Of a stretch of 64,000 nucleotides of DNA, positions 37,923 through 52,849 are shown piece by piece. The stretch lies in the NCBI GenBank assembly GCA_030390025.1, contig CM059431.1, positions 121,522,001-121,586,000 of the forward strand. Reading direction: 5' to 3'. The position numbers and the translations under genes are program-made. The DNA comes from Squalus acanthias (Eukaryota). Position 1 is the first letter of the stretch, and every line of letters begins with the position of its first letter. A model generated the notes under the pieces. It searched no databases, was not told the DNA's origin, and saw nothing but the letters and a program-made list of their open reading frames with translations.

Positions 37923-38398
37923 TATTACAAAGTATTTACAGAACAGAAACAGGCCATTCATCCAAACAGGTCCATGCCAATGTTTTTTCTCCACATGAGC
38001 CTCACTCACCCCTCATCTAACCCCATCAACATATCCTTCTATACCTTTCTACCTCAGGTGCTTATCTAGCTATGCCTTGAATGCATCTTTGCTATTCGCC
38101 TCAACTATTCCCTGTGGTACCGAGTTACACATTCTCACCACTCTGTTTCTCCTGAATTCCCTATTGGATTTATCTTATGACTAGTGGCCAGCTTATATTT
38201 ATGGCCCCTAGTTCTAGTCTCGCCCGTAGGTGGAAACATCTTCTCTACGTCTACCCTATCAAACCCTTTCATAATCTTGAAGACCTCTATCAGAGCACCC
38301 CTCAGTCTTCTCTTTTCTAGAGAAAAGAGCCCCAGCCTGTTCAGTCTTTCTTGATAGATATAACCTTTCAGTTTTGGTTTCAATCCAGTAAATCCATG
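37923..38398 (-). mobile_element. CR1 LINE 3' part, target of the provirus; continues at 51183-51819 and 52850-53066
   Basis: YQERLNRLGLFSLEKRRLRG; SKFADDTKL and GVPQGS on the far side of the provirus. Confidence 0.85.
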
Positions 38399-40065
38399 TG
38401 TAGAATTCGCAATATATCGCAATTTTATTAATAAGGAGAAAACACAGAGTTTCGTTCAAACAGCTTTTATTTCAGTAGAATGCTGGCAGGTTTAAAGTGG
38501 ACACAAGCAGCCTGTAAAATGGCCACCGCACCTCGTGACAGAACATTCTAGACTTTTCAACAGGCAGACAAGATGGCGTTCCAATAAACATTTGTGCAAG
38601 ATCGATTAAGATTCAGCACAGTGAAGATAATACACGAGACATTATGGGTTTGCAGTATACACATAGATACTGAAATCGGTCTCCCAGGTACAAAGGAAAG
38701 CCATTGTACCGAGTAATCAAACCCATCCAAAAGACATTAATATGTAAAATCCCAACGACTCTACGATGAGAGAGCCGTTAGCAGGTAGTTATACAGGACA
38801 CTTGGAAGCCCCAAACCCCTCCAGGGAGAACACCGACCGATTTAACAATGGGAGAAATATTAACAGGTACTCAGACATTTACGAGTAGCCCCGAAACCCA
38901 TTAAGAACGGAGATCACCCATACAAGACATTTGAGCGCCAAACCCTAAACAAAAGAATGGACATTATAGTTGGGCGGGAAACGGAAGATTTTGCACTATA
39001 ATTGCAGGCTCCAAACCGTCCATTTTTTCTCTTGCTGCTCTTATCATCGTGGCTGCTCCTGTGCTCTTATCCGGTCGCTTCGTAACCTCGTGGCTGCTCC
39101 TGTGTACTCGTAGTTGGGCTCGCTTCTGCTTGCCTGTTGCCTCTTCTGAAAAGACTGTTGAACTTTCTGATCCGTTCGGATCTACCTCGTGTCGCGTAAC
39201 GAAGACCTATATTGGTAACTGGTATCGGAACCAAAAGGCCCGAGAAGAGATGAGATGAGATGAGATGAGAAGAGAGGAAGACCATATCCATCGCCACAAT
39301 CAGTAAATCCCGACCGCGCCTGTAGGTCGATTATCCAAGTTTTTCCTTGCCAGGAAGACTTCTTCGAACTTATAACGAAACATATTGCATCGATGATAAC
39401 TGGACTGTGCCCAAAGTAACTGGAATGTGAAAGCCACCAATACAGATCTTCATCACAGCAGACGTTCCAGCCTGCTAGCCGGAGCAGCAGAAGCAAGTAA
39501 ACAAGTGGGACCAGGAGATCTCCTGACCGACACGTGGGTGCTGCGGTGAAAAACATCCGATCAGCTATTCGGAATTTCTCCGAGTTATCACGAGTGGTGA
39601 GCATGAGTCTCGAAATCCTACGAATCTAGTTTAGGATAGATATTGATAGGGGAGGGTTTAAGGATTAAGGATATTTGTAATGTGTGCCCCTATTTATTTT
39701 GTGCCGTTCGTTCCTCGTTTCCCTAAGATCGATTATATAACTGTTTGTAAGATTGTACTGTCATTAATCTGTGCTTATGACATGTATTTCATAATCTTAA
39801 GTATCATGCAATAAAGATTTTCCATTTCGTACCATTCAAACCGAGTCTACATGAGTTTCATCTCCATTACTGCTCTCGCATCTAAGTCCAGTGTCTAGAA
39901 CCGTAAGGGAGAGTGATTCGAACCACTCACAGGTGTGTCTAGTGTTCCCAGACTGGCTGGAGACCAGAACAGGCAACAAGGCCTAGACCCGCACTGACAT
40001 ATAGGCTGCACAGAGCCGCGTGAATCTCACAGGCTGCGAGACACGCAGGGTCAGAATCCCTTACA
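38399..40065 (+). repeat. 5' LTR (1667 bp)
   Basis: TGTAGAATTC...CCCTTACA; about a dozen differences from the 3' LTR; GC box ~38972, TATA-like ~38997, AATAAA 39810-39815. Confidence 0.97.
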
Positions 40066-40069
40066 GAAA

Positions 40070-41881
40070 ATGGCGACCGCGGCAGGACACTGGCAGCGAG
40101 AGGGTAGTGTGTTAGATTTTGGAATGACTGTACAAAATGTTATGCAGGAAAAGATAGCGGATTATGTGTTTGGAAAGGTTAATCTAACTAAGAAATGGAT
40201 AAGTGAATTGTTAGCGGATAAGAGCCCACTAGAGGCAGCTGAAAGGTGGACAGATAGTAAAGAACATAGAAAGACACTTGAGAAAGCAGTCTGGCTTATG
40301 TGTTACAAAAGGCAGGTTCAGATTTCAAACCAGACCATTACAGCGCTAGTAGCTCGAATCAGTCATTTAGAGGGAGAAATGGAGGAGAAGGTTTCTGGAG
40401 GGGAGGTGCTCATTAAGAATTTAAATGAGTTACACCAAGAAAGCCAGGAAGTCTCCAGTCACCTTAAAACAAGGATAGATTATCTCGAATGCCAGGTCAC
40501 TGAGGCAAAATTGAATGAGAGCAGGTTAAAGGAAAGATGTAACCGCCAAGCTGCCCAGATAAGAACTCAAGAAGAGAGCTTGACCGGGGTTAGGGCGGCA
40601 TATAAGTTGGCCCTTGAGGATAAGTTTCAGGGAGCCGATCATAGCGCCTGCCAAAGGGAGATAGAGCACCTCAAAAAGGCCGTGAACAATGCGAACGGCA
40701 TGGTGTGCCTTATCAATCCGTCGGCGCACCAGCCGCTAGTAAATGAGAGATTTAGAAAATCCCCACCAAGTAAAGCAGAAGAAGTAGTAGTCACTGCGCC
40801 CTCCGCGCCACCCAGCTATTCAGAAACCTGGGTTAGGGAGGAAGCAATGGAAGAAACAAAAGAGCCCATTGAAAAAGAAGTAGGAAAGGGATCGTTATAT
40901 CCAGTAACGGGTATTAAAAGGGGCCCAAGCAGAAACGGTGGGGAAGAACCGGGGGATCTCCTCGGACAGCTGGTGTTGCCTCACAGTTCACATCAGCTGA
41001 GAGCTATGATAAATCACGTACGGAAGCTGACCGAGACAGACGACCCTTCCGTACATTTCAGAGAAGTTGAGCAAGCCGCAGCCATTAACGGCTGCGATGA
41101 TGGGGAAACAGCAAAAATGCTGCTGTTCTCATTAGACAGCTCGGTCCTTCAGTGTCTCTCAGGCGAGAGCAAGAGGGGAACCAAGAGTTATGAGGAATTA
41201 AAGAATGAGGTCCTGGAAGTGTTGGGGGCGAACGACGAAGGTCCGTTTGCTAGAGTGGGACAGACAGTGCAGATGGAGGGAGAACCCCCGAAGGTTTTTG
41301 CCGACAGGCTGTGGCCAGTATATGAGCGCAGCTGTCTAGGTGCGCCCGAGCGCGAAGATGTGGAAGGTTTAGCTTTAACTCATTGGCTTAGGTGCATAAT
41401 AGCCAACAGTTTACCAGCCGTCAGAGAGCAGGCAAAAGCATGGTTTGATCCCAATGACCCCAACATTACGGAAGAGTCGGTCTTGAATCGACTCACGTTA
41501 GGTTATCGCAATATAAGGGGTATGGCAACACGTCCCCTTAAGGGAAGAGTACATGAGGTACGACCCGCAGCCCCGTATCAAAGAGAGTGGCATCAGGAGG
41601 GTAATCGCGCCCCACAGGCAGGTAATGCTTGTTACGGGTGTGGGAAGACAGGGCACTGGCGCAAGCATTGCAGGAACCCTTGGAAGGATTCCAAGGATAA
41701 AAATCCCGCGGTCCGAGCCCAGGCGCCTGTCCCGGCTAAGGAAGCCAAGGCACCCACCCCTCCTGACGACCTCGAAGCAGTGTTAGGAGCCATGCGCAAG
41801 CTGGTCTTGAATGCGCGTGGACAGGTGGCGGTCGCAACCGGCCCCGTAGGTGCCGCAGGACCGTCTAATAGTACCCCATGA
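40070..41881 (+). CDS. gag: Gag polyprotein (603 aa): N-terminal coiled coil, PSAPPSY late domain, capsid-like region, CCHC zinc knuckle
   Basis: Open ORF directly after the LTR; CYGCGKTGHWRKHC at 41630-41671; PSAPPSY at 40799-40819; start could alternatively be the ATG at 40124. Confidence 0.92.
   Translation: MATAAGHWQREGSVLDFGMTVQNVMQEKIADYVFGKVNLTKKWISELLADKSPLEAAERWTDSKEHRKTLEKAVWLMCYKRQVQISNQTITALVARISHLEGEMEEKVSGGEVLIKNLNELHQESQEVSSHLKTRIDYLECQVTEAKLNESRLKERCNRQAAQIRTQEESLTGVRAAYKLALEDKFQGADHSACQREIEHLKKAVNNANGMVCLINPSAHQPLVNERFRKSPPSKAEEVVVTAPSAPPSYSETWVREEAMEETKEPIEKEVGKGSLYPVTGIKRGPSRNGGEEPGDLLGQLVLPHSSHQLRAMINHVRKLTETDDPSVHFREVEQAAAINGCDDGETAKMLLFSLDSSVLQCLSGESKRGTKSYEELKNEVLEVLGANDEGPFARVGQTVQMEGEPPKVFADRLWPVYERSCLGAPEREDVEGLALTHWLRCIIANSLPAVREQAKAWFDPNDPNITEESVLNRLTLGYRNIRGMATRPLKGRVHEVRPAAPYQREWHQEGNRAPQAGNACYGCGKTGHWRKHCRNPWKDSKDKNPAVRAQAPVPAKEAKAPTPPDDLEAVLGAMRKLVLNARGQVAVATGPVGAAGPSNSTP
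40071..40088 (+). promoter_or_regulatory. Primer binding site, tRNA-Arg(TCG)
   Basis: TGGCGACCGCGGCAGGAC is the 18-nt complement of the vertebrate tRNA-Arg(TCG) 3' end ...GTCCTGCCGCGGTCGCCA (recalled sequence). Confidence 0.88.
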
Positions 41882-44800
41882 CTAGAACCGGCGCAGCCCG
41901 TCTACCTGTGTCCGCTTAGCTATGACGCGTGGAGGCGACCTGTGGTGGAGATGGAGGTAGAGAAACAGAAGGGTAGTTATTTGTTGGACACGGGAGCTTC
42001 TTGCACCATAATCCATACAGATAACCCTTTCGACTCGCCGCTATCTACCAAGGTCCCATTCACGTTAGCAGGGTTCACAGGAAAAGAACAGGCTGGCACG
42101 TTTTCCCTTCCGCTATCCATTCGTTTAGGAACACTTCGCCTTAAGTGGAAGTGTATACTGATGGCATGGCAAAAGGGGGGTGGAAGAGGTATCCTCGGGT
42201 CCGATCTCCTAGCGGGACACGGGATCCTCGTGGACCTCAGAAATCACTGTCTCTGGGGGGCTAAAGGTGAAGAAGGCGAGGTAATAGTGATTCCGGGGGA
42301 GGAAGAAACAGAGGTCCTGTGTACCGTACAGCCATCCGGAGGCTACGACCTCAGGCTTATGGTCGCAGATGTCCCAACGGACATGCAAACGTACGTGTCA
42401 GATAATATGCACGCGTTTGCAACCCACAAGCACGATTGTGGGAGAGTGGTCGGGTTTGAGGTCAGCGTAGATGGGGACCCCATGACCCGACCCCAAAAGC
42501 AGTATAACTTCCCCAAAGAAGCAGAACCCGATATGGAGACAGCAATGTCCTCCTTGGTGCAGCAGGGCGTGTTGAGGCCAATAGCCACACACGTAAACTC
42601 CCCATTATGGCCGGTTAGGAAGCCGGATAATTCGTGGAGGGCCACGGTGGACTACAGAGTCCTTAACAGTAACATTCCCGCCTGCGCGCCCACAGTAGCA
42701 GCAGTTGCTGACCTAATAGGGAGCATCCCAGCGTCCGCGACCACGTTCACGGTGCTGGATATCTCGAACGGTTTTTGGTCCATCCCGCTGCGGCGAGAGG
42801 ACCAGTACAAGTTTGCCTTTACTTTCAAAGGACAACAGTACACATGGAACTGTCTGCCACAGGGTTTCCACAATAGCCCCAGTATTTTTCATCAGTGTAT
42901 GGCAGGAAGTTTAAAGGAGTTTAGTCAGCCCAATCAGATAGTACAGTATGTGGATGATTTGCTCCTATTTACGGACTCAAGGGAGGAGCACGGACCACTA
43001 CTGGACGAGTTATTGGAGCTGTTAGCGAGAAAGGGTTTTAAAATAAACCCTAAGAAAGCACGTATCGGTCAGCGGGAAGTAAAGTTCCTGGGACTGACCA
43101 TACGCGCTGGGGAAAGAGCCATAGACAAAGCAAGGAGGGAGTCGGTGCAAGAATTACCGATTCCCAACAACGTAAGGGGTGTGAGGTCCTTCTTGGGACT
43201 GACCGGTTACTGCAGGGATTTTATCGAAGATTATGCGGCCACAGCGGCGCCGCTCCTCCGACTCCTCCATAAGGGGGTGGAGTGGCTTTGGGACGAGGGC
43301 TGCCAAGCAGCCTTCGAGAAGTTAAAAAGGGATCTGCAGACCGCGCCAGCCTTAGGGGCCATAGATGGGGGGAAGGAGTTTTTCCTGGAGGTAGCTGCCA
43401 GCGGAGACAGCTTAAGCGCCGTACTGCTCCAAGAGCGTCACGGCAAGCTGAGGCCGGTTGTCTATTCATCCAGGGTATTAACGGATGTGGAGAGAAGTTT
43501 CTCCAATTGCGAAAGGCACCTTTTAGCCACGCATTGGGCTGTGAAAAGATCAGCGATCTTCACAGGGCTCTCTCCCATCACTCTCCTCACACATCACACA
43601 CCAACTAAGATGCTTCTGGATGGGAGGATTAAAGACGGGACCGTAAGCAGCGCACGCATTGCGCGTTGGACCCTTCTTCTCTCCCAGTTGGATCTTAGAG
43701 TAAAAGGTCTTTGCGAGCCAAGGCTTGCGGCCAATCTGGTATACCCCGGTACAGCCCACCGGTGTTCGGTGGAAGGGGTGTGGGACGTCAACATAGGTTT
43801 ACGGGCCGGGATACATCCCACTGGGCGCGAGATTTATGTTGATGGGTCTAGCACAGTATCTGCTGGCGAGCGACTCACAGGGTGTGGAGTTTATGACCCT
43901 GCGGCAGACCTTGCCCTGGCGATCAAGCTCCCTAGCACCATGAGCGCGCAGCAGGCCGAGCTGTCTGCCGTGGTGTACGTTGTGACCCACCCAGACATTT
44001 TCCCAACCCCATACACGATTTGCTCGGACAGTATGTTCACCTGCAATTCGTGTACGGAATACCTGGCCATTTGGTCCCGCCGCGGATACACCTCCGCGGA
44101 CGGGCGACCTTTAACGGTGAAGCCCTTGCTGGAAAAGATCTTAGCAGCAGCAGTGGGGGAGGAAGGAGAGATTTTCATCCATAAGGTGAAAGCTCACTCC
44201 TCCACAGAGCCCCGTGGGGAGGGCAACCGGCAGGCGGATGCGCTAGCCAGGGAGGGTGCCCGCGACGGCACTTTCTGGAACCCCTATAGGACCGGACCCA
44301 TAGCAGCGGTCCGAGGCGGGGACGGGAATCCCGGGAACACCAGGGTAGCATTGCCCCTAGACCTCAAGACCGTCCAAACCCAGGATCCCGCCCTAAAAGC
44401 AGTCCTAAAAACGATTGCTGAAGGGAGGCAGGTAGAAGGTCCGTACAGTACGGCAACCCTCTCAGTTAAGGAAGGCATGCTGTTCCGCGAGGAGCAGTGG
44501 GTTGTGCCACAGCAGCACAGGAGGGAATTCCTCCAGTTGGCTCACGAGGGACCAGGGGCAGGGCACCCCGGGCCCGAGGTTACCTGGCAACGGGTAGAGC
44601 AAGCGGGATGGTGGCCAGGGCTCAGGGAACAAGTCCGCGAGTTCTGTGCAAACTGTCTTGTGTGCGCTGCAAACAACCCAGACCCCCAGAAAAGGAAGGT
44701 GCCCATGGGACACGTAAGAAGGGTAGAGGGACCATGGCAGTCGATACAGATCGACTATATAGGACCCCTGCCCACCACCCAGGGAGGTTATAAGTACTGC

Positions 44801-46378
44801 CTCGTCCTGGTGGATGTGTTTTCCAAGTGGGTGGAAGCCTTCCCTTGTCGAACAGCTACGGCACTGGGTACAGCAAAAATCTTGGTCCGGGAAGTGTTCT
44901 CGCGGTGGGGACTCCCCCGTTTTGTGGAGTCAGACCAAGGGAGTCATTTCACCGGCCAGGTGATGCAGAACACCCTCATGCTTTTGGGCATTGAAGGGAA
45001 GTGGCACGTAGCACACAATCCCCAGTCATCCGGGATTGTTGAACGTATGAACCGGACCCTGAAGGAGAAATTGAGGAAAGAGACTAGGAACTCGCCCCAA
45101 AAATGGGCGGAGGTTCTGCCTTTAGTCCTCATGGGGGTCCGGGCCAGTCAGTCGAAAAGTACGGGGTATTCCCCGCACGAGGTGATGACTGGGAGGCTCA
45201 TGCGAACCCCCACCCATGTGCTAGCGCCGGTGCTCACTGAGGGTCAGCTCCAAGAAATAAGCAGGGACAAGTTCGCCCAGACCCTCTTGGAGCGCCTAAA
45301 ACAGGTGTATGAGCAGGCGGCTGGGAACATGGGAAGGCAGCATCAGGGCAATCGCTTGTTGCTGGAACCCCGCAAAACGCGGGAGTGGGAAGTAGGAGAC
45401 CAGGTCATGGTCAGAAACTACGCCAGAGTAGGGAGTCTGGAACCACTGTATATGGGACCCTACAACATTGTAGACAAGGCGAGTCCCATGGTTTACGCCG
45501 TAAAAGTACCACGGCGCACTAAGTGGTTCCACATAAACCAATGCAAACTGTACCAGCCAGGTGCGCAGGGGAAAACTACAGGGGTAAATCCCGCCAATGG
45601 GAGAGCACAGCCCCAGGTAGGACCACAAGGCACACAGGCAGGCATAGCAGCTTGCATCAGGGGAAGGGACATCCCGGACGATCATGCAGCGTTTTTCTGG
45701 AATTGGGGGTTAGATGAGGAAGAATTCAGGGTACCCGGGTCAGATGAGGATAGTGCAGATGAGGATAGTGATGACGACGGGTGGTTTCGGAGGAACGGTC
45801 CCTTTTACGATATGGAGGGGACGGGGGCTGCAGGTAGAGATCCACACAGGGTGGACACACGAGCTGCAGGTCCCGAAGACAGGAGGGAGGAGCTAGAGGA
45901 GGCAGGGCCAGCCGCTATGGGAGCACAGAGAGTACCGGTGTGGCTCCCAGAGATGTGGCCGCCCGCTTTGAACGTCCAGTCCTCAGGGGAGGCAGAGATC
46001 ACGAGTGAAGGGCCGCCTGCTGGGCCGAGCAGGGCGGAGCCACGAACTGCCAGCCCCGAGGTTAGGGAGGCGGAGTCAGCGGAGGCGGAGCCAGCGACTG
46101 TGATGGAACCCCAGGTCATCCCGATGGAAGTCTCGGAACCCGGTCCGTCCGTCACGGAAACCCCGCCCATAGCAACTCCCCGTAGGTCAAGTAGAGAACC
46201 CCAGCCCAGGAGGATGTGGTCATGTCCCCAGACTGCCCCAAGGCGAAAATTTAAGGTTAAGATAACCCAGATACAGACCGGCCACATCGCAGCAGTAACA
46301 GGCTGCGGCAGATCAGAGGGAAGGGTCAGTGCCCTCCCACCGTCGGGAAGAGCTCGCAGCAGCCTTCTCAGAATTTAA
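41882..46378 (+). CDS. pol: Pol (protease, RT, degenerate RNase H tether, RNase H, integrase, C-terminal extension), probably made as Gag-Pol by UGA readthrough
   Basis: LLDTGAS; LPQGFHNSP, YVDD; FFLEVAAS..(tether); YVDGS/SAQQAEL/SDS/KAHS/GNRQAD; HHCC; IDYIGP, SDQG, SSGIVERMN; GPY. Frame is open from the codon after the gag stop. Confidence 0.95.
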   Translation, partial: LEPAQPVYLCPLSYDAWRRPVVEMEVEKQKGSYLLDTGASCTIIHTDNPFDSPLSTKVPFTLAGFTGKEQAGTFSLPLSIRLGTLRLKWKCILMAWQKGGGRGILGSDLLAGHGILVDLRNHCLWGAKGEEGEVIVIPGEEETEVLCTVQPSGGYDLRLMVADVPTDMQTYVSDNMHAFATHKHDCGRVVGFEVSVDGDPMTRPQKQYNFPKEAEPDMETAMSSLVQQGVLRPIATHVNSPLWPVRKPDNSWRATVDYRVLNSNIPACAPTVAAVADLIGSIPASATTFTVLDISNGFWSIPLRREDQYKFAFTFKGQQYTWNCLPQGFHNSPSIFHQCMAGSLKEFSQPNQIVQYVDDLLLFTDSREEHGPLLDELLELLARKGFKINPKKARIGQREVKFLGLTIRAGERAIDKARRESVQELPIPNNVRGVRSFLGLTGYCRDFIEDYAATAAPLLRLLHKGVEWLWDEGCQAAFEKLKRDLQTAPALGAIDGGKEFFLEVAASGDSLSAVLLQERHGKLRPVVYSSRVLTDVERSFSNCERHLLATHWAVKRSAIFTGLSPITLLTHHTPTKMLLDGRIKDGTVSSARIARWTLLLSQLDLRVKGLCEPRLAANLVYPGTAHRCSVEGVWDVNIGLRAGIHPTGREIYVDGSSTVSAGERLTGCGVYDPAADLALAIKLPSTMSAQQAELSAVVYVVTHPDIFPTPYTICSDSMFTCNSCTEYLAIWSRRGYTSADGRPLTVKPLLEKILAAAVGEEGEIFIHKVKAHSSTEPRGEGNRQADALAREGARDGTFWNPYRTGPIAAVRGGDGNPGNTRVALPLDLKTVQTQDPALKAVLKTIAEGRQVEGPYSTATLSVKEGMLFREEQWVVPQQHRREFLQLAHEGPGAGHPGPEVTWQRVEQAGWWPGLREQVREFCANCLVCAANNPDPQKRKVPMGHVRRVEGPWQSIQIDYIGPLPTTQGGYKYCLVLVDVFSKWVEAFPCRTATALGTAKILVREVFSRWGLPRFVESDQGSHFTGQVMQNTLMLLGIEGKWHVAHNPQSSGIVERMNRTLKEKLRKETRNSPQKWAEVLPLVLMGVRASQSKSTGYSPHEVMTGRLMRTPTHVLAPVLTEGQLQEISRDKFAQTLLERLKQVYEQAAGNMGRQHQGNRLLLEPRKTREWEVGDQVMVRNYARVGSLEPLYMGPYNIVDKASPMVYAVKVPRRTKWFHINQCKLYQPGAQGKTTGVNPANGRAQPQVGPQGTQAGIAACIRGRDIPDDHAAFFWNWGLDEEEFRVPGSDEDSADEDSDDDGWFRRNGPFYDMEGTGAAGRDPHRVDTRAAGPEDRREELEEAGPAAMGAQRVPVWLPEMWPPALNVQSSGEAEITSEGPPAGPSRAEPRTASPEVREAESAEAEPATVMEPQVIPMEVSEPGPSVTETPPIATPRRSSREPQPRRMWSCPQTAPRRKFKVKITQIQTGHIAAVTGCGRSEGRVSALPPSGRARSSLLRI

Positions 46379-46421
46379 AGGGGCCGCCCTGAGAACGGGC
46401 GGCACTGTAAAGTTATAGTTC

Positions 46422-46507
46422 TAAGTTTTAAGTTTATAGTTCAAGGCTAAGTTTTAAGTTTATAGTTCAAGGTTAAGTTTTAAGTTTATAGTTCAAGGTT
46501 AAGTTTT
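46422..46507 (+). repeat. Tandem repeat, 26-bp unit x3 plus partial, between pol and env
   Basis: TAAGTTTTAAGTTTATAGTTCAAGG(C/T) starting at 46422, 46448, 46474, 46500 (partial). Confidence 0.9.
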
Positions 46508-46715
46508 ATGTTTTATTAAGGTTAAGTTTGTAGTGTTTTTAACAGAAAACGATAAAATGATGGGAGCTTTAAAGATAGGTTTAGTTGAAGTTTATTCAGC
46601 GAACGTTGAAGTTTACGTGAGGCGAGGTCAGGGGACCCGCTCACCCTTCACAAAAGCCAGAGACTCTTGCGAGGCTGGCTACCTCATTCTATCTGATCAC
46701 AGGAACCAAGGAAGG

Positions 46716-49067
46716 ATGGAACGAATTCTAGTATTGCTCGTGGCAATCGGATGTGGATTGGCCTATCGAGGCCGCACCAAGGATGTCGTGGTGTTTGGAT
46801 GTTCCGGGGACACGGCCCCCATCGCGGTGGATGGGACCGGAAGACGGGAGGCAGAGGAGACCAGCACCTATTTCCACAAGGGAAGGTGGCCAGGATGGCT
46901 GGGAACGAACTCAACGGAGTATTCCAGCACATCGGGGTTTGCCTACAAAGAGACTTCTTTACTGTGCCCCAAAGTAAGGATCATCGCACCCAGGATCAGC
47001 GTCACCGTCGGCAAACGGATTTGTTTGACTTGTAGTGGGAAGGTCCCATTGAGCCGATGGTGGTGGCTGCGAAAGCTGAGCAAAACTATGAGGAACTCTT
47101 CGGTCGAGTGGGAACGACTGGGTAATAATACCCATCGGACAATTACGGGGACAGACGGACAAGTGAAAGTCTGTTGGGACAAATGGTGGGAACCGGATGA
47201 GGGAATTTATGTATGTATGTGGGGGTCAAAGTACGTTTGCCCCAAAGGCATCTCCATATTTTTTATTAATCAATGGCAGGATAACGGACAGGGGATGAGG
47301 TGGGATGCGAGCACCAGGGGGTGCGGAGCCCCATTCTCCCCGATCCCAGTAAATGCCACTGAGCTCATTACGCGCCCACGCAAAGCCCCGCCCACGATTC
47401 CGGTGGTTCTAGCTGAGGAAGAAGGGTGCCCTAAAACTAGTAAGGGACCCGGGAATGGTTTGGTACTGGTCCCCACAGACCAGATACTATTTCAGGGGGT
47501 ACATTACGCGGTGGCCTCGGTGATTTTAAATCTCACTGAGGTGCGGTTACCAGAGTGGTGCCCCAAAAAGACGGAACAGTTGTACCAGGTCCTGTTGACC
47601 AAGATGTTCAGACAATTTTACGAATTCGATTTCGCGGAAATTGATAAAACAAGTTTGTACACCGCACCACAGGAAGTTTTGGATCAAGTAGGGAGGCAAA
47701 GAAGGGGTTTGGTGAACGATGCGTTCACTGCTTTTAACACAGGTACATCTGTGGTCAACGCTCTAGACAGTGTGGAGCTGCAGACCCAGATTAATGGTTT
47801 AAAGACACAATTAAAGGACATTCTAACAGATGAGAATAAAGTGGTAGGGTCGGGTCTACACGAGGACCAAGCCATGACCCTCCATTTAAAGGAAATTATA
47901 GCAGAGTTGGAGAAACATGCAAAGACGGTAAATGCCCTGATTAGGGAAGATCGGAATGCATCCGATCAAGCTGCGCAGAACGAGGTGTGCGTGCTTTACG
48001 GGGCGTGGTTACTGGGCGAGGGCCGCAGTAATTTGGAGGATTTAAAACAAGGTTTGGTTCCGTCCTGGATAAGTAACAAACACCTGCGGGCGCTCCACCC
48101 TTTTCAGAACGCATTAAGTCCATGCCAGCTCAGGCTAGCTTCAGAAGCTTACCCAGTCCCCGTGGACTGCGGACGATCAAACCATACTATTATGGGAATA
48201 GTATTACGTATGCCGGTTTTGGGCGACACAGCAAAGCCCGCCCCGGTGTATCGGGTAGAGAACATTGGTGTCATTCAGGGGGGAGCCCACATTCGCTATG
48301 CAGCGGTTCCACCTTACGTCATCCGCTGGGAGCAAACGATGACAGGTACAGATCTCTCTGGTTGTCGTGGCAGGGGAGCACACATAATACTATGCCCCCA
48401 GCACTTGAATGCCTTTTTAACACCACAGTGCGGGTTCAGAACGACTGGCGCCAAGTCCATGAATTGCACCATGGAGGCAATGGCACAAGATCATGTGCCT
48501 CCGCAGGTAGCATACATCGGGGGTGGAACATATTGTGTTACCACTGCAGCGCAACACTACCAGCATGGAAACCGTAGCCGGTGTCCGGTGAGTGACAGCA
48601 GTTTCTGTTTTAAACCCAGGGCGGAAGTTCAAGTAGCACAACAGCGAATTATCCCAATCCCTGAACCATCCACTGTTCATCTCACAGTAAAAGAGAATTT
48701 CACCGACTTGCAGCGATTCGTCGCGCATTTTGGATACCTCATTCCCCCTCTCCCTGAACACCTCACCAAGCTTTTGAAAGCCGTCGCGGTGTCACAGAAA
48801 CATTTTTACACATTAGAGCAGAAAACTGTCGAAATAGGAACAGACATTCTGGATATAGTAGTTCCACCGTGGTGGAATCTGTTCACTAATATTGAAGTAC
48901 CTTCATGGATCAGAATAGCCTCCCACATTTTAGTCGTATGCCAAGTTTTCATTGTAGTGTACCTATTGGTTGTACATTGTAAAAGAGACAAACGCCTCAC
49001 CAAGCATGAAAACACGGGAGAGTGGCGAGAACGTTACGTGCGCGTGCACGATGAGAGCACCGTGTAA
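46716..49067 (+). CDS. env: Envelope glycoprotein (783 aa): signal peptide, Ig-like domain, class I F-like fusion protein, TM, short tail
   Basis: MERILVLLVAIGCGLA signal; furin site RQRR|GLVNDAF (47694-47705) then heptad repeat; Cys-rich region; TM IASHILVVCQVFIVVYLLVV; candidate acceptor cacAG|G at 46702. ORF track starts earlier at non-ATG 46533. Confidence 0.9.
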   Translation: MERILVLLVAIGCGLAYRGRTKDVVVFGCSGDTAPIAVDGTGRREAEETSTYFHKGRWPGWLGTNSTEYSSTSGFAYKETSLLCPKVRIIAPRISVTVGKRICLTCSGKVPLSRWWWLRKLSKTMRNSSVEWERLGNNTHRTITGTDGQVKVCWDKWWEPDEGIYVCMWGSKYVCPKGISIFFINQWQDNGQGMRWDASTRGCGAPFSPIPVNATELITRPRKAPPTIPVVLAEEEGCPKTSKGPGNGLVLVPTDQILFQGVHYAVASVILNLTEVRLPEWCPKKTEQLYQVLLTKMFRQFYEFDFAEIDKTSLYTAPQEVLDQVGRQRRGLVNDAFTAFNTGTSVVNALDSVELQTQINGLKTQLKDILTDENKVVGSGLHEDQAMTLHLKEIIAELEKHAKTVNALIREDRNASDQAAQNEVCVLYGAWLLGEGRSNLEDLKQGLVPSWISNKHLRALHPFQNALSPCQLRLASEAYPVPVDCGRSNHTIMGIVLRMPVLGDTAKPAPVYRVENIGVIQGGAHIRYAAVPPYVIRWEQTMTGTDLSGCRGRGAHIILCPQHLNAFLTPQCGFRTTGAKSMNCTMEAMAQDHVPPQVAYIGGGTYCVTTAAQHYQHGNRSRCPVSDSSFCFKPRAEVQVAQQRIIPIPEPSTVHLTVKENFTDLQRFVAHFGYLIPPLPEHLTKLLKAVAVSQKHFYTLEQKTVEIGTDILDIVVPPWWNLFTNIEVPSWIRIASHILVVCQVFIVVYLLVVHCKRDKRLTKHENTGEWRERYVRVHDESTV

Positions 49068-49505
49068 TCGGAAAATGGCGTCACTCCCGCTCGCCACGTG
49101 CGCCGCGGAAGCCTGTACTCATATAAGATTTTCAGAGATTGTAAATACGTTGGGAACTCGACATGTTTTAAGAGTTGGTGTTGATTATTTTGGTGATGGT
49201 GTTACAGTTAAAATTGATTGTTTGGTTTTGGGTTCTGTTTCTCCTTTCCCTGAATAAAAGATGAATATACAGGTGATACGAGAGGCATCGGCCTGGTTAC
49301 GCCGGGAAGGAAAACAAGTGGTGTAAGTTTAAGGGCAAATAATGCCTACGGTGATATAAAATGTAATTTTCTTGGGAAATGAGGACGACACAGAGACCCT
49401 AGCTAGGTTAAAGTTATGGGATTAATTTGCTGGATTCGGAGAGAAATCGAGATAATATTGCTCACCACTATGATTTTTGATACGATAAGCGGAGTTATTC
49501 GCATC

Positions 49506-49517
49506 AACAGGAGGGAC
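49506..49517 (+). promoter_or_regulatory. Polypurine tract
   Basis: AACAGGAGGGAC abutting the 3' LTR; identical in the sister provirus (54842-54853, minus). Confidence 0.8.
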
Positions 49518-51182
49518 TGTAGAATTCGCAATATATCGCGATTTTATTAATAAGGAGAAAACACAGAGTTTCGTTCAAACAGCTTTTATTTCAGTAGAAT
49601 GCTGGCAGGTTTAAAGTGGACACAAGCAGCCTGTAAAATGGCCGCCGCACCTCGTGACAGAACATTCTAGACTTTTCAACAGGCAGACAAGATGGCGTTC
49701 CAATAAACATTTGTGCAAGATCGATTAAGATTCAGCACAGTGAAGATAATACACGAGACATTATGGGTTTGCAGTATACACATAGATACTGAAATCGGTC
49801 TCCCAGGTACAAAGGAAAGCCATTGTACCGAGTAATCAAACCCATCCAAAAGACATTAATATGTAAAATCCCAACGACTCTACGATGAGAGAGCCGTTAG
49901 CAGGTAGTTATACAGGACACTTGGAAGCCCCAAACCCCTCCAGGGAGAACACCGACCGATTTAACAATGGGAGAAATATTAACAGGTACTCAGACATTTA
50001 CGAGTAGCCCCGAAACCCATTAAGAACGGAGATCACCCATACAAGACATTTGAGCGCCAAACCCTAAACAAAAGAATGGACATTATAGTTGGGCGGGAAA
50101 CGGAAGATTTTGCACTATAATTGCAGGCTCCAAACCGTCCATTCTTCTCTTGCTGCTCTTATCATCGTGGCTGCTCCTGTGCTCTTATCCGGTCGATTCG
50201 TAACCTCGTGGCTGCTCCTGTGTACTCGTAGTTGGGCTCGCTCCTGCTTGCCTGTTGCCTCTTCTGAAAAGACTGTTGAACTTTCTGATCCGTTCGGATC
50301 TACCTCGTGTCGCGTAACGAAGACCTATATTGGTAACCGGTATCGGAACCAAAAGGCCCGAGAAGAGATGAGATGAGATGAGATGAGAAGAGAGGAAGAC
50401 CATATCCATCGCCACGGTCAGTAAATCCCGACCGCGCCTGTAGGTCGATTATCCAAGTTTTTCCTTGCCAGGAAGACTTCTTCGAACTTATAACGAAACA
50501 TATTGCATCGATGATAACTGGACTGTGCCCAAAGTAACTGGAATGTGAAAGCCACCAATACAGATCTTCATCACAGCAGACGTTCCAGCCTGCTAGCCGG
50601 AGCAGCAGAAGCAAGTAAACAAGTGGGACCAGGAGATCTCCTGACCGACACGTGGGTGCTGCGGTGAAAAACATCCGATCAGCTTTCGGAATTTCTCCGA
50701 GTTATCACGAGTGGTGAGCATGAGTCTCGAAATCCTACGAATCTAGTTTAGGATAGATATTGATAGGGGAGGGTTTAAGGATTAAGGATATTTGTAATGT
50801 GTGCCCCTATTTACTTTGTGCCGTTCGTTCCTCGTTTCCCTAAGATCGACTATATAACTGTTTGTAAGATTGTACTGTCATTAATCTGTGCTTATGACAT
50901 GTATTTCATAATCTTAAGTATCATGCAATAAAGATTTTCCATTTCGTACCATTCAAACCGAGTCTACATGAGTTTCATCTCCATTACTGCTCTCGCATCT
51001 AAGTCCAGTGTCTAGAACCGTAAGGGAGAGTGATTCGAACCACTCACAGGTGTGTCTAGTGTTCCCAGACTGGCTGGAGACCAGAACAGGCAACAAGGCC
51101 TAGACCCGCACTGACATATAGGCTGCACAGAGCCGCGTGAATCTCACAGGCTGCGAGACACGCAGGGTCAGAATCCCTTACA
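49518..51182 (+). repeat. 3' LTR (1665 bp)
   Basis: Direct repeat of 38399-40065 with two 1-nt deletions and ~10 substitutions. Confidence 0.97.
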
Positions 51183-51819
51183 CATGTTGCACTTTCTCCA
51201 ATGCCTCTATATCCTTTTTATAATATGGAGACCAGAACTGTTCACAATACTCCAAGTGTGGTCTAACCAAGGTTCTATACAAATTTAACATAACTTCAAT
51301 GCTTTTCAATTCTATCCCATTAGAAATGAACCCGTGCTTTGTTTGCTTTTTAAGTGGCCTTCTTAACCTGCATCACTACTTTTAGTGATTGGTGTATCTG
51401 TCCCCCAGATCCCTCTGTTCCTCTACCCCATTTATACACTTATTTTTCGAGGAGTACGTGGCCTTCTTATTCTTCCTACTAAAATGTATTGCCTTACACT
51501 TACCTATATTGAAGTCCTTTTGCCAATTACACACCCATTCTGCAAGTTTATTAATGTCTTCCTGTATTTTGTCTCAGTCCTCCTCTGTATTAACTGTACC
51601 ACTCAATTTGGTGTCATCGGCAAATTTTGAAATTGTACTTCTGATTCCCGAGTGCAAATCGTTTATGTAAATAGTGAGAAGTGGTCCCAGCAGCGATCCT
51701 TGTGGAACACCATTTACCACCATTTGCCAATCCGAGTAACTATCTTTAAATCCGACTCTCTGTTTTCTGTTTCGTAGCCAGTTTGCTATCCATTCTACTA
51801 CTTGTCCCCTGACTTCACA

Positions 51820-52849
51820 GGGGTGATTTTGGCCGAATACTTTAGATGCTAAAGAGGTAAAGAAGTGGCCAAGATGTGGTCTTAAGCTGCAATGTGGTTT
51901 AGCCCACATTTAGCGCAAGATAACATCTTGGTAAAGGATTTGAAACCAGCGCTAGTAAAGGCCGCCCCAAAGATCATTACGGGGCTGATTGACAATGAAA
52001 TTGCCTGCTAGCGCTCACTAAAGAGGCTGCACACCATTTTGGTGGATAACACTTCATTTAACGACCTCTCCTGACAGCAACCAGCTGAACAGGAGTAAAC
52101 AAGTCATTGTTGAAAATTTTGAGTGCTACTTAAAGATATATCACGTTTTACTGTCAACTTGGTGCTGGAGGTTTGAAGAGGGCTTTTGAAAAACATTGGG
52201 AGACTTTCTGGGACACATTGTCAAGACTTCACCAACACTCTATCAACATTTATTCTGGAAATTGTGTGAGGACATCACCTAAAAAGAGTGAGTGCTGTGC
52301 TACTCTACCTTATTGGACACCTTATAGGAGTCACCAGGAGAAAGGCATCTTGCTCGGGGTCCCCCTTGGTCTGCAGAAGGAATGGGCAGAGGAAATGAGT
52401 CCAGGCAGAACAGCACCAGCTGATCCAGGAGAGAGGGACAGGAGGGTCAAGTGCACTGCTTCCCCCCTGTGGGTATAGGACATCCCTTCTCCACTGGACC
52501 CCCTCCACCAGGACGTCCACTGCTGTGCCTGAGAACCTGTGCGCTCTCTCACTCAGTCCCTGAGCCATCCTGAAACCTGCCACTGTGTGTCAGCCAGCAC
52601 ACTCCACACCTTCAGTGGAAGTGGATACGTGGAGCCCACATATACTGCTCCACGAAAATTGCTTCTAATCAGCACTTGAGTGCTAAACCTGCAGGTGTCT
52701 GATTTAGCATCTACCGGCAAGTTCAAAATATAGTACTCAGCAATTAGGACCAAATTTGCATGCTAAAACCAGACTTTCAAACAGGCGTGTCTTATTCGCA
52801 CTGCACCCATTTAGCACATGTTTTCACCCTGTCACCAAAATAAACCACC
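51820..52849. mobile_element. Harbinger-derived deletion derivative inserted in CR1
   Basis: Myb-like ERAHRFSGTAVDVLVEGVQWRRDVLYP (minus, ~52583-52470), imperfect TIRs; CR1 resumes after 52849. Confidence 0.6.

Follow-up and report, generated by a model that had tools for sequence, protein, structure and literature searches.

What kind of membrane-fusion protein is encoded by the envelope (env) gene of a retrovirus-like element in Squalus acanthias, and from which retroviral lineage did it come? The question is raised by a 64,000-nucleotide stretch of the genome assembly (GCA_030390025.1, contig CM059431.1, positions 121,522,001 to 121,586,000 of the forward strand), analysed as a whole and called the window here, which holds a complete provirus at 38399-51182 with env as its third gene, after gag and pol. 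The original prediction, made from the letters of the window, had read positions 47450-48980 as an envelope (Env) body resembling the class I fusion (F) protein of paramyxoviruses and pneumoviruses. We put at roughly three in four the probability that this stretch encodes the fusion-competent Env body of an endogenous retrovirus (ERV) that was active recently, that the Env is a paramyxovirus-F-type class I fusogen ('subclass Ib'), and that its closest known kin are elements like the snakehead retrovirus (SnRV). Below we establish that the frame is open, that the motifs stand in order and are conserved, that an F-type fold is predicted and that env has been under purifying selection.

The env frame is open over 46503-49067 on the forward (+) strand, with a likely coding part of 783 codons at 46716-49067 that probably starts at the methionine at 46716, where the N-terminus is signal-like (MERILVLLVAIGCGLAY); by sequence reading, the start and the signal-like peptide (MERILVLLVAIGCGLAYRG) occupy 46716-46772. 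An N-terminal domain rich in cysteine and tryptophan, with four N-glycosylation sequons, follows at 46767-47420 (residues ~18-235), and then an F2-like segment at 47421-47705 (residues 236-330) that ends at a furin-type site, RQRR (47694-47705). The putative fusion peptide (GLVNDAFTAFNTGTSVVNALDS, 47706-47771) adjoins the cleavage site, consists of small and polar residues, and carries a motif conserved in the family. Downstream lie a heptad-repeat A (HRA) region at 47763-48047 (residues ~350-444), a beta-rich core at 48048-48668 (residues 445-651) that would correspond to F domains III (the core sheet), I and II, a heptad-repeat B (HRB) helix with a membrane-proximal PPWW motif at 48753-48875, and the transmembrane span, cytoplasmic tail and TAA stop at 48909-49067. 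The transmembrane span (residues ~732-755, 48909-48980) is the sole 19-residue window in the Env with a mean hydropathy above 1.6, and the tail has 28 residues.

The predicted order of motifs was recovered in full, with GLVLV at 47457, PEWC at 47550, RQRR, GLVNDAF from 47706, PSWIS at 48060, GIVLRMPVL at 48195, PVYRVENIG at 48243, VPPYV at 48306, GTDLSGC at 48345, IILCP at 48384 and PPWW at 48864. The claimed sequence of heptad repeat, second helix, tryptophan pair and transmembrane span also held, with model helices at residues 319-374, 385-444 and 680-715 preceding PPWW, and so did the anchored subunit of about 450 residues, as a cut after RQRR (residues 327-330) would leave 453.

A search of 1.84 billion representative sequences returned 51 relatives of the Env at E<=1e-3, those with names coming from sharks, a skate, a sawshark and frogs, and repeating the search with the Env profile brought in just close relatives. 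For the distant full-length relatives, alignment begins only at about residue 221-235. Eleven core cysteines are kept across the family (Cys238, 282, 425, 485, 550, 560, 572, 584, 607, 623 and 631), for example Cys238 in 9/9 relatives, Cys282 in 10/11 and Cys425 in 14/17, and of the 16 alignment rows spanning the basic site, 10 read R-x-K/R-R and two more R-x-Q-R. Because the core cysteines and the basic cleavage motif are kept among these 51 relatives, the motif pattern is more than chance. In the ESM Atlas the whole Env was closest to an unnamed chordate cluster (0.84), with no named family.

The predicted structure carries the assignment. An AlphaFold model of the Env was built from a 21-sequence alignment and compared with the PDB by Foldseek and by two VIA comparisons, and all three rank paramyxovirus or pneumovirus F proteins first, as the original prediction had proposed. 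Residues 240-650, the core of the model, have a predicted local distance difference test (pLDDT) score of mostly 80-90. Foldseek gave 235 PDB matches at E<=1e-3, and all of those listed are paramyxovirus or pneumovirus F proteins, the best being F of human parainfluenza virus 3 (hPIV3; E 2.6e-11). On re-scoring with VIA, 50/50 listed entries are F proteins, with Z scores of 13.2, 12.5 and 12.1 over 328-330 aligned residues; the top match, 1ztm_C (Z 13.2, 330 residues), pairs model residues 245-651 with F residues 26-431. The alignments are colinear from model residue 245 to ~651-662 and from F residues 26-38 to ~431-449, and the model strands at 241-272 and helix at 284-306 align with the N-terminal part of F. 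A VIA search independent of Foldseek, over 48,161 representative chains, found 11 chains at Z>=8, nine of them paramyxovirus or pneumovirus F (8.9-12.1) and two foamy virus Env (8.5 and 8.2), and the first unrelated chains were coiled coils at Z 5.6 or less. Retroviral transmembrane subunits, of the gp41 or gamma type, do not occur among the PDB matches listed. The outcomes that would have told against the original prediction, a lack of significant structural similarity to F or a better fit to a retroviral transmembrane subunit, did not arise. The F-type reading is supported by this modelled structure, with no link at the level of sequence, and applies to the Env from residue ~240 onward; the N-terminal domain ahead of the F body had been overlooked in the original prediction.

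Baculovirus or errantivirus F had been named there as the alternative relative, and on this point the F-like class stood, whereas the choice between its branches did not resolve. In a Foldseek search of BFVD the best matches were arlivirus/lispivirus-type glycoproteins (1.2e-13), with baculovirus F at 1.4e-11 and paramyxovirus F at 5e-9, values too alike to separate one branch from another, and two epsilonretrovirus Envs also matched, those of walleye epidermal hyperplasia virus 1 (6.5e-12) and walleye dermal sarcoma virus (8.5e-7). Because arlivirus-type glycoproteins, baculovirus F, paramyxovirus F and epsilonretrovirus Envs all match, the modelled Env belongs to a broad F-like class within which the nearest branch is not separable by fold matches. 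The same matches suggest that epsilonretroviral Env, which a preprint places outside the beta/gamma classification, may be F-like too. The Baculo_F family of Pfam matched one of the 21 family members (P0040, assigned by elimination; E 0.0011).

The env gene belongs to an abundant and very young family. In the 3.7-Gb genome of the species, 57/57 scored Env protein matches are ~100% identical and free of stops (from 12,915 first-look candidates), 40/40 scored env DNA matches are at least 99.36% identical (from 3805 first-look candidates), and 73/73 scored matches to the reverse transcriptase (RT)-RNase H region are open. From the 40 DNA matches the best were taken, and the 30 loci cut for them gave 27 distinct env sequences, one with a premature stop and three with an indel. 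Variants shared by at least two of these sequences, which occur in mosaic combinations, comprise 40 synonymous and 3 non-synonymous changes (dN/dS ~0.02, binomial p 1.7e-22), against 26 synonymous and 40 non-synonymous private changes (~0.46). The excess of synonymous shared variants argues that env was selected while the family spread, and is the pattern expected of spread by infection under purifying selection, with decay only after insertion.

Many env copies stand in tandem, ~7.7 kb apart. At one such locus (L051, G000:C3311:2260700-2266300) the unit runs through env, LTR (long terminal repeat) and gag to the equivalent of window position 41913, then ~245 unmatched bases, and resumes at 45534 and on to env; the 41913/45534 joint is seen also in contigs of two sequencing runs. 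This unit is a pol-deleted gag-env derivative in arrays that share LTRs. Its LTR-gag part is ~97% identical to the window element and its env at least 99.4%, and these unequal identities show recombination within the family.

The lineage of the element was approached through its pol gene. Over RT-RNase H the closest relatives of Pol are frog and coelacanth proteins (43-46%), followed by TLV_coat-type class I elements (30-34%) and then Ty3/gypsy. A scan of IMG/VR returned 38 viral loci with RT matches, of which the best, L058 (IMGVR_UViG_638276818_000001; 38% identity, E 3e-82), encodes a Gag with a coiled coil and a CCHC motif, has an in-frame stop ahead of pol, and carries an Env of 1134 residues that matches no Pfam family. 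The window element and L058 have in common this genome plan of a coiled-coil/CCHC Gag and an in-frame stop before pol. Pairwise BLASTP between the two Envs was not significant (E 0.051); the profile of the window Env family matched L058 Env 516-832 in hhalign with a probability of 85.3% (E 5.9e-6, 285 columns), over the F2-like part, the basic site, HRA and the beta core. L058 is 10,688 nt long, equal to the published SnRV sequence (PMC12193657), and its equation with SnRV rests on that length. SnRV-like ERVs are reported from the elephant shark, the coelacanth (where they are the main ERV class), amphibians and zebrafish (PMC4422223, PMC4977317), hosts that agree with those of the relatives of the window pol. 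In RT trees the window clade lies within the retroviral clade (100/100), outside the foamy (100/100) and TLV_coat-bearing (99/97) clades, and adjoins L058 at the base of the sampled retroviruses, the exact order being without support; one sampling places the window clade and L058 on the same side of a branch with 91.6 in the Shimodaira-Hasegawa-like approximate likelihood ratio test (SH-aLRT). The highest RT identity of L058 itself (43%) is to a frog member of the window clade. Judged on its RT, its genome plan and its remote Env homology, the element appears closest to the SnRV-like group and not close to lokiretroviruses, foamy viruses or gamma-type elements; on balance, we favour calling it SnRV-like.

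Two other placements were rejected. The CCHC motif in Gag, the gag-stop-pol arrangement, an RT that falls outside the foamy clade, and the lack of a match to the foamy Env family PF03408 in the window Env or its family, where a control foamy Env reaches 1688 bits, rule out a foamy-like ERV. An RT outside the TLV_coat-bearing clade (99/97) does the same for a class I ERV of the gamma/epsilon kind, narrowly defined. The genome does hold eleven matches to the foamy virus Env family (loci L052-L057), and because most of these carry stops, they indicate old foamy-like ERVs in the same genome.

Several points weigh against the reading given at the outset. Averaged over the whole model, which was built on a shallow alignment of 21 sequences, pLDDT is 58; it falls below 50 in the fusion peptide and the N-terminal 235 residues. 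The TM-scores are modest (0.47-0.60, normalised by target), partly owing to a mixture of conformations in the model. For a putative fusion peptide, the segment after RQRR is unusually polar and of low hydrophobicity, and model confidence is low at residues 324-356. At the level of sequence, the Pfam family Fusion_gly (PF00523) is matched by none of the 21 family members at E<=1, the window Env taken singly matches no relevant Pfam family (PF00523 none at E<=0.1), and sequence (phmmer) and profile searches of the PDB with the Env found nothing relevant. RT placement is unstable, since L058 lies one branch further in (90/88) in two other trees, a fuller quick one and a careful one, and the RT trees were drawn from references other than class II, epsilon and lokiretroviruses. 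The 30 env copies used for the selection estimate are those nearest to the window copy and not a random sample. Finally, the role proposed for the N-terminal domain, whose fold defied prediction, is conjectural.

An improbable alternative is that the element is a divergent lokiretrovirus whose Env is the F-like lokiretrovirus Env plus an acquired N-terminal domain. Lokiretrovirus Env is the published vertebrate retrovirus-like Env that resembles PF00523 (E 2.2e-7, reported in 2020; PMC7947760), the zebrafish lokiretrovirus Gag has an N-terminal coiled coil as does the window Gag (bioRxiv 2024.03.25.586437), the RT clade of the window element is basal among the retroviruses sampled, and the start of the F2-like segment, GPGNGLVLV, resembles by eye the printed starts of the Loki-Xtr and Loki-Xla Envs. 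These likenesses are set against the lack of any PF00523 match in the window family; a PF00523 search of the S. acanthias genome found none either, a weak search and uninformative, as its controls also gave no match. In the published screen, three Chondrichthyes genomes yielded no positives (PMC7947760 supplement). The printed lokiretrovirus Envs are ~560 residues long, their F2 is short and their fusion peptide strongly hydrophobic; lokiretrovirus gag and pol are headed as one gene, whereas a stop separates them in the window element; and the RT consensus motifs PFG and FVDD differ from LPQGF and QYVDDLLL in the window. This comparison rests on printed consensus sequences read by eye. The element was filed as SnRV-like and not as a lokiretrovirus because of its RT, its genome plan, the homology to L058 Env and these differences read by eye.

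Equally improbable is a recent capture of an F-like env from an RNA virus (paramyxo-, arli- or filo-like) or another retroelement, which would leave the window Env uninformative about ancestral envelopes. Env swapping is common in retroviruses, the BFVD search ranks arlivirus/lispivirus-type glycoproteins ahead of paramyxovirus F, and the unequal identities of LTR-gag and env show recombination within the family. The same Env family is nevertheless present in sharks, a skate, a sawshark and frogs, and no RNA-virus relative was found by sequence at E<=1e-3, as far as the unnamed matches show. Moreover, the exogenous retrovirus whose RT is nearest has an Env remotely homologous to that of the window, and env and pol thus seem to have been long-term companions.

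Far less probable still is that the fold match is an artefact of long helices and a shallow alignment, the protein being in truth an unusual gamma/beta-type or other class I Env. The low mean pLDDT and the 21-sequence alignment favour this idea, as does the frequency with which helical models reach middling Z scores by chance. The match, however, takes in beta-rich domains beyond the helices (model residues 445-651, pLDDT 80-90), extends over ~330 colinear residues, and scores 3-6 Z units higher than the first coiled coil. The Env has neither of the gamma-type marks, CX6CC and CX6C; its sole CXXC lies at residue 103 in the N-terminal domain, and neither the window Env nor its family matches TLV_coat, which control viral Envs do match. 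That env is a domesticated or inert remnant without a role in entry, as the many co-opted ERV env genes might suggest (for example in a chondrichthyan survey, bioRxiv 2026.05.06.723177), is hardly credible: the provirus around the gene is complete, its LTRs are near-identical, intact copies number at least dozens, and selection is seen on the variants that copies share, a picture that fits a replicating virus and not one host locus.

On the F-type reading, the steps of entry can be proposed by analogy with known F proteins, and we infer cleavage, trimer formation, receptor binding and fusion of the window Env on that basis. The precursor would enter the endoplasmic reticulum by its signal peptide, and a furin-type protease would cut after RQRR, yielding an N-terminal subunit (the ~220-residue domain and the F2-like segment) and the 453-residue anchored F1-like subunit. 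The N-terminal domain would bind a receptor in cis, standing in for the attachment protein of paramyxoviruses. In keeping with F-protein mechanics, triggering of a metastable trimer would free the small-residue fusion peptide, HRA would extend, and HRB would zipper back onto HRA, drawing the membranes together.

The N-terminal domain (residues 18-235) is conserved among close Env relatives and is lineage-specific. It is the natural candidate for receptor binding, a role proposed because a retrovirus has no separate attachment protein. Folding of residues 18-240 with 10 sequences gave a model with a pLDDT of 35, which is unusable. Leads to an immunoglobulin (Ig) fold are weak: Ig_3 of Pfam at E 0.45, V-set at E 0.045 in the family member P0034, and Ig clusters of the Atlas at 0.78-0.80, scores that fall below the meaningful level. 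Three marks, CLTC (103-106), RWWW (114-117) and DEGIYVC (161-167), are ones that we take to recall Ig domains, and the domain is possibly Ig-like. In BLASTP, DEGIYVC aligns with two motifs that resemble it in the N-terminal part of L058 Env.

The remainder of the provirus is that of a young element. The 5' LTR (38399-40065, +; 1667 bp, with TG...CA ends) follows a CATG target-site duplication at 38395-38398, and the 3' LTR (49518-51182, +) has a purine-rich tract (..AACAGGAGGGAC) before it and CATG after it. By blastn of the flanks, the two LTRs are 99.28% identical, with 10 mismatches and 2 gaps, and their Kimura two-parameter (K2P) distance is 0.0060. Under the rate of 2.2e-9 implied by a table for lokiretroviruses (PMC7947760), with the rate for this host assumed, the LTRs would be ~1.4 million years (My) old; slower assumed rates put their divergence at 3-6 My. 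The primer-binding site (PBS), TGGCGACCGCGGCAGGAC, was read from the sequence at 40071-40088 (+), 5 nt past the 5' LTR. The genome has 422 occurrences of the PBS reverse complement joined to a T-loop motif, most of them on one contig (G000:C26, ~38.99-42.2 Mb) in tandem arrays with a 1.6-kb period; because of these T-loop-joined tandem copies it looks like a tRNA gene family, and the arrays are probably a large tandem tRNA gene cluster. The tRNA is putatively tRNA-Arg.

The gag gene (40070-41881, +; start methionine uncertain) encodes a coiled-coil-like N-terminal stretch and one CCHC zinc knuckle, and ends in a TGA stop followed by CTAG. Gag residues 532-612 have weak CCHC-type PDB matches (E 0.01-0.3), and no capsid family was matched in the Pfam search. 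The pol gene (41882-46378, +) continues in frame with gag past that one stop, and comprises a protease, an RT, a tether that is a degenerate RNase H, an RNase H, an integrase and a tail. Pfam matches in Pol are RVT_1 (4.9e-36), RT_RNaseH_2 (2e-21), RNase_H (2e-19), Integrase_H2C2 (1.7e-17) and rve (5.6e-15), and its PDB matches are Ty3 (6.6e-72), RT of the murine leukaemia virus (MLV) type (~1e-69), foamy virus protease-RT (1e-63) and the integrase of prototype foamy virus (PFV; 5.8e-34). The C-terminal tail, ~270 residues after the integrase (45570-46375, residues ~1230-1498), is rich in Asp, Glu, Pro and Ala and matches no family. At the gag-pol junction (41879-41888), TGA then CTAG stands where L058 has TAG then GGC in the same frame, and both junctions fit stop-codon readthrough, by different signals.

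Hints of transcription came from the contigs of four sequencing runs, three of which were guessed to be RNA. In one contig from one run, its kind likewise guessed, 39595 is joined to 46702 between GT..AG ends, with a side of 21 letters; this is a hint only. The putative acceptor at 46702 sits 14 nt upstream of the env ATG; the putative donor at 39595 lies upstream of the TATA-like and AATAAA motifs of the LTR, an arrangement left unexplained. In the three runs guessed to be RNA, read depth over env exceeds that over gag-pol, and in the fourth it is flat; the difference was given no weight and is not used as evidence, because pol-deleted copies exist and the depth ranking is unreliable. A 99-codon frame (stop to stop, 48958-49257) overlaps the end of env in another frame and reaches the spacer between env and LTR; in SnRV a 3'ORF overlapping the end of env is described (PMC12193657). 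Just outside the 3' LTR, an open frame at 51574-51909 (-) reads like the RT of a non-LTR element (VPQGSLLGPLL, YINDL, FADD), and belongs to an unrelated neighbouring repeat.

An F-like retroviral Env is not new as a kind, because lokiretrovirus (by sequence, 2020; PMC7947760), foamy virus (by cryo-EM, 2024; PMC11468914) and errantivirus cases are published. The window element would add a third retroviral group with an F-type Env, linked to the orthoretrovirus-type L058 and recognised by modelled structure only; what appears new in the window Env is a receptor-binding-type domain at the N-terminus of the F core. The literature searched, with subscription journals and bioRxiv supplements outside it, gave no description of this Env family, or of SnRV Env, as F-like. 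The finding bears on the origin of retroviral envelopes, since an F-type start would become testable across the SnRV-like, epsilon, foamy and lokiretrovirus lineages. A bolder proposal, which we regard as doubtful, is that an F-type (subclass Ib) fusogen was ancestral to vertebrate retroviruses and was later replaced, and that the window family still infects by means of an Ig-like domain. If so, four deep lineages or more would have kept the F-type Env (lokiretroviruses, foamy viruses, the SnRV-like group, and epsilonretroviruses, counted because walleye virus Env is matched in BFVD), gamma- and beta-type envelopes would be later replacements, and the window family might still be infectious in cartilaginous fish, with an Ig-like domain ahead of its F core. 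Because dozens of intact, near-identical copies exist and env bears a signature of selection, a natural env could be assayed for expression, cleavage and fusion without reconstruction.

Among known systems, the F proteins of paramyxoviruses and pneumoviruses (hPIV3, 1ztm; Newcastle disease virus, 3maw; Langya virus, 8tve; respiratory syncytial virus, 3rki) share with the window Env a predicted core of domains I, II and III, a furin-type site directly before the fusion peptide, the order of HRA, core, HRB and transmembrane span, and an anchored subunit of ~450 residues. The window Env differs from them in having no detectable sequence similarity, a ~220-residue domain before the F2-like part, a more polar fusion peptide, no separate attachment protein, and a gene borne by a retrovirus. 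Baculovirus F (Ld130), the F-type Env of errantiviruses and the arlivirus/lispivirus glycoproteins match the window Env in BFVD at E 1.2e-13 to 1e-10, but belong to invertebrate viruses and elements; a preprint on the invertebrate errantiviruses, which carry F-type Env, reports no vertebrate ERV homologous to them (bioRxiv 2023.10.26.564294).

Within the retroviruses, L058 Env has ~515 residues before its F-like part as compared with 235 in the window Env, and a tail of ~130 residues as compared with 28; the L058 genome further differs in its stop, TAG in place of TGA, and in its PBS. Lokiretrovirus Env is likewise F-like, with a signal peptide, a basic site (RXKR there), a fusion peptide, a coiled coil and a transmembrane span, but is shorter, lacks the N-terminal domain and, unlike the window Env, matches PF00523. 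Foamy virus Env (8rm0 and 8rm1) was the second-best fold class for the window Env, and its F core is known from cryo-EM, by which F, coronavirus spike and foamy Env are grouped as 'subclass Ib', with receptor-binding modules variously placed (PMC11468914). In foamy Env, which also has a leader peptide, the receptor-binding domain is inserted between the heptad-repeat C (HRC) helix and the furin site, according to the same report, whereas the extra domain of the window Env is N-terminal. The candidate receptor-binding domain of the window Env would thus be placed as in coronavirus spike, at the N-terminus of the F core, where foamy viruses have an insertion before the furin site and lokiretroviruses have no such domain.

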